Below, one piece after another: positions 20,864 to 60,033 of a stretch of DNA of 64,000 bases. The stretch's first letter is position 1. Each line of letters opens with the position of its first letter. The stretch spans positions 806,001 to 870,000 of the forward strand of contig CATOCA020000001.1 in the NCBI GenBank assembly GCA_951406725.2, in the 5' to 3' direction. The notes under the pieces are model-generated. The model did no database searches. It saw only the letters and a program-made list of their open reading frames with translations, and was not told the origin of the DNA. Made by a program: the position numbers and the translations under genes. This stretch comes from Octopus vulgaris (Eukaryota).

Positions 20864-20947
20864 ATGGAATTCGATGAGAATATAAGTAAACTTTTGCTTA
20901 GTGACACTCAATATATTAAAGAATATATTGAACAAAATTCACGTAAA
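20864..20947 (+). CDS. Gene A coding exon 1 ([28 protein letters not shown])
   Basis: ATG at 20864, donor gtaagt at 20948. The acceptor ttctag at 20846 implies an upstream UTR exon. There is an 84-nt homolog at 59950-60033(-). Confidence 0.8.
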
Positions 20948-58000: not shown

Positions 58001-60033
58001 TGCCCGAAATACTAAGCTACGTGTGTGTGTCCTAGAGCAAGACACTTTATTTCACGTAACTGGCAAAAATGAATAGTACCTGTGTTTCAAGGGGTCAGCC
58101 TTGTCACACTCTGTGTCATGCTGAATCTCCTCGAGAACTACGTTAAGGGAACACGTGTCTGTGGAGTACTCAGCCACTTGCACATTAATTTCACTACCAA
58201 ACTGTTCCGTTGATCATATCAGCTGGGACCCTCGTCGTCGTAACCGACGGAGTGCTCCTGTAGTCGTGTCACACTGGCACTACTCGGGGGCATCTTTGGA
58301 CATTTAACCTGCCTGGAATTGGAAGTAAACAAAACAGATTTATAGATTCTGGCTAATTCTGAACTTACCCACTCACAGCATAATGAAATGCTGTACAATC
58401 ATCTCTGTCCTTCATGTCTAAATCAGACCCGGCTTCTATTAAGGAATTTATCAAATCTATGTTTCCCGCTTGACAAGCAGCCATCAGATATGTCAGACCC
58501 CATGAATTTGACTCGTTGATCTGAAGTGAAGAAAGTGAAACCGTATGAAATATATTAAAGGAGAAAGAGAGGAGAAGAGAGAACAAGGAAGATGTTTGGG
58601 TAAGAAAAAAAGGGATTTCAAAGAGAAAAAAAAACGGGCAAGAAAGATACACACATCATCATCATCATCATCATAATCATCATCATCATCATAGTCATCA
58701 TTTTGCTTCTGCTTCTCATGCCGACATAAGTTACAGTAGTCTTCATGGTTTCGCTTGTTTGAAGTTATTGTTGATCTAGACGCGTGGGATGACTACACAC
58801 ACACACACACACACGCAAACATACACATACTCTCTTTCTCTCTCTCACACACTCACACAAGTGTTCGCTAGAAATAAAGTCACAATATTTGAAGAAAATA
58901 TCTTAAAAAAAGTTAACTAAAAATTATTGAAAATTACGGAAAGCCTTTGTTGGTACTAACGATTGATAGTTTAGTAAAGAGGTGGACAGAAGAATATTTA
59001 GGAGAATCATCGAACTCTACCATTTGATGGTAGACAGTGTCTCATCTGCTGACTACCAGCCTATTATTCTAAAGTCCAATATTTCAATGGTTAAGAAAAA
59101 ATCATAAACAACCATCAGCTTTATTCCTTTCGGTATTTTTATCTCTTCAATGATTTGTTGTTTGTTTGTTCCTTCTCGAGCCATGCCTGGCTCATAAGGG
59201 CCGGTTTCCCGGTTTTATTGGCGTATAGGTTCCCCACCTGGACGGGACGCCGGTCCGTCGCAGGTGAGCTGCAAGATGCCGGAGGAAAGAGTGAGAGAAA
59301 GTTGTGGCGAAAGAGTCAGTTGAAGTTTCGCCATTACCTTCTGCCGGAGCCTCGTGGAGCTTAGGTGTTTTCCTCATAAACACACACATCGCCCGGTCTG
59401 AGATTCGAAGGCGCGATCCCTCGACCGCGAGTCCGCTGCTCTAACAACTAGGCCATGTGCCTCCAGTCTTCAATGATTAGAAGAAGTACAATACTATAAA
59501 GCCAGATCAAGTGAGGATTTGATTTCTATGTGATACATTAGTATTTCCATGTGTTTGACAACTTCTGCAAAAGAAATGGTGTAGCCCTTGATGTCCGTAA
59601 AACATTCAACCGTTTATAGCAAGAGAACGTCATGACAAAGTCACGATCCATCTACTGGCTGCATCTGTCCCTCATCTCTTGGACGACTGAATATTTCCTG
59701 CCAGAATACTCCGTTGCAGTGTGTGATGACAGGCTTCTCTCTCACTCACATTCCATCAACTCTGACATGCTTCATGATTGGGTTGAATTTTCATAAAATC
59801 TAATGATAATGAGGATTAGAAGAAAGTTGTGGAGAAAGAAATGAAATATCAGGGACGAATACACGTGGTTACTTAGGAACATTTAATATTCTGTATGAAA
59901 TATCAATCAAATAAGTAACTTTGAGAAGGCAATAAAAGGAACAACTTACCTTATGTGAATTTTTACGAATAAATCCTTTAAAATATTGACTGTCACTAAG
60001 CATAATTTTACTTATATTCTTATCAAAGGCCAT
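42856..60033 (-). CDS. Gene B: intact ankyrin + C3HC4 RING + death-domain protein (604 aa with one 72-nt exon, 652 aa with all three)
   Basis: Exons 60033-59950, 58520-58369, 56694-56538, 54604-54024, 52335-52299, 51313-51104, 49908-49733, 48342-48200, [44936-44865, 44112-44041], 43672-43601 and 43058-42856. All are GT-AG, phases are compatible, and I found no stops. Confidence 0.87.
43601..43672 (-). CDS. Gene B 72-nt exon copy c, death-domain start (LEEKHLLKVAERLRRKWWHVG)
   Basis: tttcag|...|gtgagt; closest to the A exon at 34474-34545. Confidence 0.8.
44041..44112 (-). CDS. Gene B 72-nt exon copy b (CSKLEAKCLQVRVEKSKCEWQQV)
   Basis: tttcag|...|gtgggt, 72 nt, open in phase 1-1. Confidence 0.55.
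44490..44777. repeat. About 100-bp tandem repeat, about 2.7 copies
   Basis: aatg(t/c)ctttaatagaatt...ccattctataggaaattaggaatagaacctgtt recurs near 44507, 44607 and 44706. Confidence 0.85.
44865..44936 (-). CDS. Gene B 72-nt exon copy a (GTPKSENKEVQTPAHPSESKVLPT), diverged, linker-like
   Basis: cttcag|...|gtgagt, 72 nt, open in phase 1-1; flanks are homologous to the other copies. Confidence 0.55.
45030..45660 (+). mobile_element. 3' end of an RLE-type non-LTR retrotransposon
   Basis: IWCEECKLIHLVELTVPHE...KDESYKTLIEDCTATGWSA (ELTVP..K..Y..GW motif). Confidence 0.75.
46382..46790 (+). mobile_element. CORE-like tRNA-derived SINE
   Basis: Full copy; reverse match to 9690-10070. Confidence 0.85.
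47590..47886 (-). mobile_element. tRNA(Arg)-like SINE with 13-bp TSD
   Basis: TSD actgtaaaaactt at 47577-47589 and 47887-47899. Confidence 0.9.
48200..48342 (-). CDS. Gene B RING exon (CLLC...PCGH...CKDC...CPKC)
   Basis: C3HC4 ligands intact; splice sites match gene A. Confidence 0.9.
49733..49908 (-). CDS. Gene B pre-RING exon (VAMYLAYSGGNFHHKNKRDETPLDLI)
   Basis: ttgtag|TTC...CT|gtaagt; homolog of 30097-30275. Confidence 0.85.
50189..50353. repeat. Imperfect inverted repeat (about 65-bp arms)
   Basis: caagaaagtaaatttcgaatgcagtaaagct... / ...agctttactacattcggaatttattttcttg. Confidence 0.75.
51104..51313 (-). CDS. Gene B ankyrin exon (MTPLLLAVSEGH...NNCLHLAV)
   Basis: 210 nt; homolog of 28575-28784. 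Confidence 0.88.
51661..52186 (-). mobile_element. Composite tRNA(Arg)-like SINE (two bodies) with TSD
   Basis: Head and body as at 39937-40245, fused to a body as at 1230-1460; flanked by tgatgttgc duplication. Confidence 0.8.
52299..52335 (-). CDS. Gene B 37-nt micro-exon ([12 protein letters not shown])
   Basis: tttcag|...|gttagt; homolog of 25512-25548. Confidence 0.8.
52651..52693 (+). ncRNA. Minimal type-I hammerhead ribozyme motif (Penelope/retrozyme type)
   Basis: GTACG-CTGATGA-cGGGTgaagACCCa-GAAA-CTGCAG-TC-CGTGC: complete core, stems I and II, palindromic stem III, GUC cleavage triplet. Confidence 0.75.
53015..53186. repeat. Inverted repeat (about 77-bp arms, about 16-nt loop) beside (TA)n
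   Basis: atatatcaagctaaggttat..aacaaacaaatgcaaggtcatcca / tggatgaccttgcatttgtttgtt..ataaccttagcttgatatat. Confidence 0.88.
54024..54604 (-). CDS. Gene B ankyrin exon 4 (about 5.5 divergent repeats), homolog of the giant exon of A
   Basis: Starts INKQNVNGDTPLL and ends GNTPLHLAVL; A has [13 protein letters not shown]...[10 protein letters not shown]. Same phases (0-2). Confidence 0.9.
55040..55760 (+). mobile_element. Penelope-like GIY-YIG remnant interrupted by a SINE
   Basis: DVIYKKEVTS...KYAGMIESLFSTKFNNRKPF, then LSRRI*SL...INWGVLERGKP...KRFRLHL after the SINE. Confidence 0.7.
55309..55544 (-). mobile_element. SINE with 17-bp TSD
   Basis: ttgtctagg(g/c)gtatata at 55292-55308 and 55545-55561. 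Confidence 0.9.
56179..56476 (+). mobile_element. tRNA(Arg)-like SINE
   Basis: Same family as 35969-36264. Confidence 0.85.
56538..56694 (-). CDS. Gene B ankyrin exon 3 (KGANAEKCNAQGNSLLHLAVETG)
   Basis: tttcag|C...CAG|gttagt, phase 2-0. Confidence 0.85.
57700..58258. mobile_element. Two inverted copies of one SINE family
   Basis: 57770-57920 is reverse-complementary to 58060-58211. Confidence 0.8.
58369..58520 (-). CDS. Gene B ankyrin exon 2 (GLTYLMAACQAGNIDLINSLIEAGSDLDMKDRDDCTAFHYAV)
   Basis: ttcag|ATC...GG|gtaagt, phase 0-2. Confidence 0.85.
59156..59466 (-). mobile_element. tRNA(Arg)-like SINE with 12-bp TSD
   Basis: TSD tcttcaatgatt at 59144-59155 and 59467-59478. Confidence 0.9.
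59950..60033 (-). CDS. Gene B coding exon 1 (MAFDKNISKIMLSDSQYFKGFIRKNSHK)
   Basis: Homolog of 20864-20947; donor gtaagt. Confidence 0.8.

Follow-up and report, generated by a model that had tools for sequence, protein, structure and literature searches.

The stretch of DNA considered here is a window of 64,000 nucleotides (nt) from the genome of Octopus vulgaris (2.8 Gb), located at C31:806001-870000 (C31 being contig CATOCA020000001.1). It carries two genes, here called A and B, whose products contain ankyrin repeats followed by a C3HC4 RING and then by a death domain (DD); coordinates of their parts are counted from the window start. The existence of a large Octopus gene family with this new three-domain layout is real, and as far as searched the family is undescribed in the open-access literature, MIB names being absent from the supplements of PMC13230822 and PMC11228953. 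The reading that we favour, on a modest balance of probability, is that A and B belong to a set of about 100 fusions of a part of Mind bomb 2 (MIB2) to a DD, which likely act as cytosolic sensor-adaptors via a DD of the Imd/RIPK1 type. New findings are the differences in array length between members and the excess of amino-acid change at positions corresponding to the binding residues of designed ankyrin repeat proteins (DARPins). The weak parts of a first-pass annotation, made from the sequence alone, are ligase activity and the pairing of A with B.

Both gene models were built from the window sequence, A with 8 coding exons and B with 11 or 12. As annotated earlier, they are convergent paralogues, A on the forward and B on the reverse strand, with seven GT-AG exons of matching size and phase (A/B 84/84, 37/37, 210/210, 179/176, 143/143, 72/72 and 203/203 nt) and an amino-acid identity of 44-83% per exon. 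The 37-nt microexon was found via an inverted match between introns and is included because it is required to maintain the frame. The equal exon layout proposed for the two genes holds for these seven exons and no further, since B has extra ankyrin exons of 152 and 157 nt and three tandem open 72-nt exons. Similarly, the order of ankyrin repeats, RING and DD after 28 amino acids (aa) is borne out by Pfam and by a structural model, but the array of A is frameshifted as assembled, on which the annotation was silent. Pfam recognizes ankyrin repeats and zf-C3HC4_3 in both A and B (E about 1e-9 each) and Death in the last exon of A (E 3e-6), the latter above cut-off also in proteins P0003-P0006; the last exon of B by itself gives no Pfam match. 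P0024, an O. sinensis protein 93% identical to the protein annotated for the 3' part of A, was modelled with AlphaFold; the model has a predicted local distance difference test (pLDDT) of 90.8 and overlays the DDs of ankyrin-G (root-mean-square deviation 1.3 Å, 79 columns) and RAIDD, while a Foldseek search with this model returned only rows with E > 0.001. A single-sequence fold of P0003 was discarded (pLDDT 44.8). With a profile covering the pre-RING exon (E4), RING and DD of seven proteins, matches were obtained to cIAP RINGs, to the MIB1 ankyrin structure and, as the best solved structure, to the DD of RIPK1 (E 6.5e-10). The Pfam match, the RIPK1 match and the overlay together confirm that the C-terminus adopts a death fold.

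A genome search yielded 143 DD-exon, 130 E4 and 90 RING matches, which are lower bounds. Without the 25 E4 matches that lie in two compact intronless decayed arrays on C1, the family comprises about 105 loci, clustered on the 12-Mb C31 (41 loci) and on C29 (30 loci), so that the lineage-expanded family that had been suspected is found and the single-copy alternative can be dismissed. A DD exon is present at most 50 kb downstream in 86 of the 105 loci, with RING and DD in order in 59; when 26 of the 33 loci without a RING match were inspected, the family profile revealed a RING in 23. Database searches gave 41 proteins at E 1e-30 or better among 1.84 billion representatives. Only 10 of 150 listed relatives are named; the five with RING plus DD are all from Octopus, as are the eight from another listing. 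Members were found in three Octopus species, and judged by sequence the family is likely confined to this genus, a restriction that is only likely because the remaining relatives are unnamed. Names such as 'MIB2-like' and 'ankyrin-1-like' conceal these approximately 100 genes with a diversified binding face. The arrays on C1 (216.93-216.97 Mb and 102.71-102.73 Mb) consist of tandem, intronless, decayed copies of the 3' part of family members, and are retrocopies amplified in tandem.

Sequence and exon structure indicate that the family derives from the ankyrin-to-RING1 part of MIB2, with loss of the N-terminal substrate module and of RING2. From the first ankyrin exon to RING1, the exons of octopus MIB2 measure 149/157/155/127/210/176/197 nt and those of B 152/157/581/37/210/176/143 nt, with equal phases and three exons of the same length (157, 210 and 176 nt). 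In MIB2, RING1 is followed at a phase-1 intron by the terminal RING2 exon, and it is this slot that the phase-1 DD exons fill in the family. The sampled family RINGs are nearer to RING1 than to RING2 of MIB2 in 48 out of 48 cases (mean score 113 versus 54), and in a quick tree of 37 rows the family is united with three ANK-RING proteins in one clade (SH-aLRT 99), which lies within a clade that also contains octopus MIB2 (98). In a genome-wide profile search (ZZ itself was not searched), MIB_HERC2 (PF06701) had 10 matches, on C26, C13, C16, C9 and C4, and the MIB SH3/REP domain (PF18346) had 21, on C26 and C13 only; neither had a single match on C29-C31. The C26 gene with both domains is MIB2. 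These results agree with the earlier statement that the pre-RING segment and RING resemble those of MIB2 but lack its N-terminal modules, and since RefSeq models begin at the 28-aa exon, the genes are not ordinary MIB2. Intermediates exist in the form of REP-bearing copies on C26 and of ANK-RING1-RING2 proteins (P0052, P0060). One genome thus offers a series of domain shuffling that runs from full MIB2 through REP-ANK-RING copies on C26 and ANK-RING1-RING2 to ANK-RING1-DD. The C26 region at 0.73-2.57 Mb holds MIB2, a cluster of REP-ANK-RING copies derived from it, and FADD at about 90 kb from MIB2. The 3' exons of MIB1 were not located in the stretches inspected.

The DD may have been transferred to the family from a RIPK1/Imd-like gene. 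The nearest DDs outside the family are encoded on C26 by a kinase-less gene (P0086) of which the O. bimaculoides orthologue is named RIPK1 by RefSeq; on the profile of the family DD, RIPK1-like DDs on C26 reach 75-90 bits, as compared to 47 for the next row from outside. The RIPK1-like C26 gene has the phase-1 DD intron of the family at the same position. Its DD matches RIPK1 at E 9e-12 and TRADD at 2e-4. FADD was rejected as donor despite its location near MIB2, as the family profile gives its DD only 12-18 bits. At C26:12.80-12.93 Mb there is a cluster of about five RIPK1/Imd-like DD genes that lack a kinase, and Argonauta has a protein similar to the kinase-less RIPK1-like DD gene. A RHIM-like stretch in P0086 and P0087 was seen by eye only, with a consensus taken from an excerpt of PMC13506858. 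The same type of DD also terminates an O. bimaculoides leucine-rich repeat (LRR) adhesion G-protein-coupled receptor (GPCR; P0076 / P0170; 100 bits on the family profile), of which no close orthologue was found in the O. vulgaris genome at E 1e-12. The consulted part of PMC6408891 mentions an octopus adhesion GPCR with one Death domain.

The ankyrin array is indeed resizable, as had been proposed: array exons range from about 120 to 1079 open codons across the family, and while in A two ancestral exons are gone and a third has grown, the layout of B is closer to the ancestral one. Internal repeat identity of the arrays is 93-94%. A third paralogue, A', is located at C31:763292-779032 on the reverse strand, head-to-head with A at about 48 kb upstream of it and 90-96% identical; its array has 25 units and one +1 indel. 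The units of A and A' together are most variable at positions 15, 16, 18, 23, 26 and 27 of the 34-residue unit, in the hairpin and first helix. Five of these belong to six positions that we take, from the design of DARPins, to be binding positions and that were checked against one PDB alignment; the remaining DARPin-type position (13) is less variable. The same six positions vary between the repeats of a PDB DARPin. We relied on this set, a seventh position (after His) having been added post hoc.

For 46 units of A and A', with the indel-bearing units (two of A, one of A') excluded, the proportion of nonsynonymous differences (pN) is 0.325 at the six positions and 0.089 in the framework, with an all-site synonymous value (pS) of 0.112. 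Codon models that allow a nonsynonymous to synonymous rate ratio (omega) above 1 at the six positions give a likelihood-ratio test (LRT) value of 6.1 for A alone and 10.3 for A plus A', with a framework omega of about 0.69, and the value of 10.3 was matched by 0 of 70 random framework sets. In a second array type, separately expanded on C29/C27 (34 units from 5 loci), pN is 0.303, pS 0.071 and the LRT 9.7, which was matched by 1 of 70 random sets. Point estimates of omega were unstable and were dropped as a measure; we relied on likelihood ratios, controlled by random sets. Amino-acid change is therefore biased to the binding face in two array types that expanded separately, and because the repeats vary most at this face the family likely consists of varied intracellular sensors. 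The member at C8:118.79-118.83 Mb combines an array of higher-order repeats, open over 1079 codons, with a RING peptide identical to that of A, but its DD is different from that of A and it has three tandem copies of the first DD exon (DD-1); this mosaic suggests exchange at the level of exons.

If A and B are sensor-adaptors, varying ligands, likely proteins that come from pathogens or are otherwise non-self, would be bound by the ankyrin groove with its diversified binding positions, after which the DD would recruit FADD or a RIPK1/Imd-like adaptor; the RING is likely a structural leftover and at most a weak ligase. A more far-reaching form of this reading, which we put forward tentatively, is that the octopus genome encodes about 100 germline DARPin-like intracellular receptors, with recombining arrays under diversifying selection and an Imd/RIPK1-type DD leading to FADD-caspase or NF-kB. 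If true, this would be a system like that of the NOD-like receptors (NLRs) without a NOD domain, put together recently from parts of two genes, MIB2 and a RIPK1-like one; a ligase (MIB2) and a relative of a protein that is among its known substrates in mammals would have supplied these parts. Few receptor families are known in cephalopod immunity, and the family is a testable candidate for the sensing of varied intracellular threats.

Several points weigh against the proposal that these genes are sensor-adaptors. Ligand sensing, the DD partners and the immune role are what we infer. With respect to the DD, Pfam gives no RHIM in the putative donor, and a tree of 55 DD rows, from which two DDs without a profile match were omitted, leaves the RIPK1/Imd-like genes unresolved rather than as sister to the family, which it groups with the adhesion-GPCR DD and one other gene (83/96); because of this tree, the direction from donor to family is to be taken as probable at best. 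The omega values of the arrays are noisy: that for C29 was reached by 13 of 60 random framework sets and that for A plus A' by 1 of 60, and tree-based omega can be inflated by recombination among units. Fast divergence of young repeats is common to many protein families, according to an excerpt of PMC5120217, and in the longest intact array, that on C8, close pairs show no excess (pN/pS 1.1, p 0.11). The array of A as assembled meets a stop at codon 403, the short exons of A and A' differ with a pN/pS of 0.92, and both genes are frameshifted as assembled. Finally, the RING exon is constrained as strongly as the DD (omega 0.53), and its eight zinc ligands are kept in 35 of 50 sampled RINGs, 5 of them with Pro-x-Cys-Arg, so that some members may be ligases.

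This last point leads to the possibility that family members are active E3s in the manner of TRIM proteins, in which the ankyrin repeats choose the substrate, DD oligomerisation replaces the coiled coil and RING1 regains E2 binding; we regard this as unlikely, though it is the rival with the most in its favour. Codon models indicate family-wide purifying selection on the E4, RING and DD exons (omega 0.57, 0.53 and 0.54; LRT 26-42), from which it follows that the RING is kept for something, though ligase activity may not be assumed. At the positions that contact E2 in MIB1 RING3, as given in an excerpted source, Pro is found in 16 and Arg in 7 of the 35 intact RINGs, and the RINGs of A and B, which have all eight zinc ligands, have acquired the Pro, which is absent from RING1 of octopus MIB2. 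Moreover, MIB1 dimers are more active than monomers (bioRxiv 10.1101/2024.03.01.582834, in part). Against this stands that a RING1 mutant of human MIB2 still ubiquitylates cFLIP-L whereas a RING2 mutant does not (excerpt of PMC7815719), and that in the consulted part of the same bioRxiv report a MIB1 ANK-RING1-2 construct shows no self-ubiquitination and the second RING of MIB2 corresponds to the active RING3 of MIB1. In A and B the residue after the last Cys is Gln, not Arg. Among the 50 sampled RINGs, a set that is C31-heavy and includes near-copies, the C3HC4 pattern is defective in 15; 4 are truncated and one subfamily has His replaced by Asp. The label E3 is doubtful since the RING that was kept is RING1 of MIB2, which human MIB proteins do not need for ligase activity, and since 15 of 50 are defective. 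The coupling to ubiquitination claimed earlier can thus not be maintained, and ligase activity of the family is presumably low. A question raised by these proteins is whether a non-catalytic RING is kept, or is re-armed once a DD replaces a dimerising coiled coil.

It is rather improbable that the proteins inhibit or decoy DD signalling, or serve non-immune recognition (neural wiring, gametes, genetic conflict), with the ankyrin repeats selected otherwise. RefSeq isoforms of the O. sinensis orthologue of B skip or truncate the DD (P0002, P0011), yet no DD-skipping joint occurs among the joints listed for four sequencing runs. The occurrence of the DD type on the octopus LRR adhesion GPCR, whose group is expressed in nerve cord, suckers, skin and gills according to an excerpted source, would also fit such a role, as would a weak MIB-like match that is 16-fold lower in infected O. 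vulgaris haemocytes and is not assignable to the family (PMC4199593, in part); repeat-length variation combined with selection on the binding face is, by contrast, the pattern of fungal non-self receptors (excerpt of PMC4986451). Still less credit can be given to a mostly neutral expansion by birth and death on small chromosomes rich in repeats, in which A would be one of many pseudogenes. The frameshifts, which affect A, A' and no fewer than 3 other arrays, would fit this view, as would 4 truncated RINGs and the two arrays of decayed retrocopies on C1, but omega is 0.53-0.57 on three exons, change is concentrated at binding positions, stops are few in the matches outside C1, B is spliced in 4 studies and members are present in three Octopus species.

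Very little also speaks for A (long) and B (short) as a dedicated sensor/helper pair, which the first-pass annotation had suggested. Their E4 exons, 19.6 kb apart, are the closest neighbours on C31 among the matches listed, and in O. sinensis, where A-like and B-like models lie on a single contig and seem to be adjacent, the last exon of A is likewise followed by the transposase fragment. However, A has A' on its other side, the closest relative found for B is on C30, and of 40 neighbour pairs on C31, 19 are tandem, 11 divergent and 10 convergent. The usual plant sensor/helper arrangement is head-to-head, whereas A and B are tail-to-tail; A is broken as assembled, and B retains about 11 ankyrin repeats and ancestral exons. 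In view of these facts the pairing is not upheld. The DDs of A and A' differ mainly by amino-acid changes (15.7 nonsynonymous, 1.3 synonymous).

With Mind bomb 2 and Mind bomb 1 the family has in common the ankyrin exons, pre-RING segment, first RING and intron phases, as reflected in the name 'MIB2-like' of its members; it differs by the lack of the MIB_HERC2/REP module and of the terminal catalytic RING and coiled coil, and by the presence of a DD, about 100 copies and an expandable array. Its DD is most like that of RIPK1 among solved structures and has its intron in common with the octopus kinase-less RIPK1-like gene, but unlike RIPK1 and Imd-type adaptors the family has no kinase or recognised RHIM, and joins its DD to an ankyrin sensor. 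Like the octopus family, TRIM ligases have a variable target-binding end, a RING and lineage-specific clusters, but the octopus RING is internal and of doubtful activity, and Pfam scans of family proteins gave no B-box, coiled coil or SPRY. Neither NACHT nor NB-ARC was found in Pfam scans of P0001-P0008, P0042, P0044, P0050 and P0058. Fungal NLRs with highly conserved ANK repeats are similar, as far as excerpts of Dyrka et al. 2014 (PMC4986451) go, in internal identity (>85% over 100 aa, as compared to 93-94% in octopus), in repeat-number variation and in positive selection on the concave face and hairpin, with a death-type output that in octopus is presumed. They differ from the octopus family, which lacks NACHT/NB-ARC, and has its sensor N-terminal and its effector C-terminal; its repeat-number variation was compared between loci. 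The nearest Atlas clusters are ANKDD1A/B (ANK and DD) and plant XB3/XBAT (ANK and RING), each a two-domain piece; no listed Atlas cluster has all three domains, which is no proof of absence as the Atlas covers clusters of at least 50 only.

Gene A (20864-36928, forward strand) has GT-AG boundaries throughout its 8 coding exons. Exon 1 (20864..20947) starts with ATG, has an in-frame stop immediately upstream, encodes 28 aa and is the positional homologue of the last part of the exon that, in MIB2, precedes the first full ankyrin exon. The array exon (21684..24694, 3011 nt) contains 28 units of 102 nt, two of which carry an indel in a short base run (-1 in unit 22674-22774, +1 in unit 23489-23591). 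These indels are plausibly an assembly error in near-identical arrays, and an open 1079-codon array exists in the C8 relative. Downstream are the microexon (25512..25548, 37 nt, phase 2 to 0), ankyrin exon E3 (28575..28784, 210 nt, equal in size to that of MIB2), E4 (30097..30275, 179 nt, the MIB-type last ankyrin segment), the C3HC4 RING exon of the MIB2 RING1 type (30997..31139, 143 nt), in which Gln directly follows the last Cys, and two DD exons at 34474..34545 (72 nt, phase 1-1) and 36726..36928 (203 nt, ending in the stop). The array is missing from database models, as those of O. vulgaris A and of the O. sinensis neighbour of A begin downstream of it.

Gene B (60033-42856, reverse strand) has an open frame and GT-AG boundaries throughout its 11 or 12 coding exons. 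Exon 1 (59950..60033) encodes 28 aa from an ATG and is followed by two ankyrin exons that A does not have, at 58369..58520 (152 nt; 149 nt in MIB2, with equal phases) and 56538..56694 (157 nt, as in MIB2), by the 581-nt ankyrin exon at 54024..54604, which is the counterpart of the 3011-nt exon of A and the 155-nt exon of MIB2, and by the microexon (52299..52335, 37 nt), E3 (51104..51313, 210 nt), E4 (49733..49908, 176 nt as in MIB2) and the RING exon (48200..48342, 143 nt). Then come linker exon a (44865..44936, 72 nt), exon b (44041..44112, 72 nt), a diverged copy of DD-1 that is alternatively included, DD-1 itself (43601..43672, 72 nt) and the last DD exon (42856..43058), which ends in the stop. 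The product has 628 aa with two 72-nt exons and 652 aa with three.

The 3' half of gene B is spliced as modelled. In contigs of 4 runs from 4 studies, joints were found at the predicted introns from E4 through the last exon, with the RING exon joined to a in 4/4 runs, a to b in 3/4 and a to DD-1 in 3/4; b is also joined to DD-1 and DD-1 to the last exon. None of these runs is on record as RNA, and the GT-AG joints are the basis for calling B spliced. RefSeq models of B in O. sinensis have the identical start Met in the 28-aa exon and a matching exon chain, and the last exon of B is 100% identical to an O. vulgaris protein named 'MIB2-like'.

Some further repeats and fragments were seen in and around these genes. 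A 57/169-nt tandem repeat occupies window positions 32679-33655 in intron 6 of A and is common to A', and a 100-nt tandem repeat lies among the 72-nt exons of B (44496-44777). The transposase-like fragment between A and B (41972-42454, forward strand) is wrongly joined to the last exon of A in the O. sinensis model P0023. In P0004, P0005, P0066 and P0077 the RING-DD linkers consist of repeated units of 16-25 aa that look like degenerate copies of DD-1, many of which are alternatively spliced in RefSeq. A 730-codon ankyrin exon of similar style is present at C29:21.774-21.777 Mb, with no E4, RING or DD in the next 20 kb, and nine tandem copies of the RING exon, without E4 matches, lie within 7 kb at C30:5.121-5.131 Mb.

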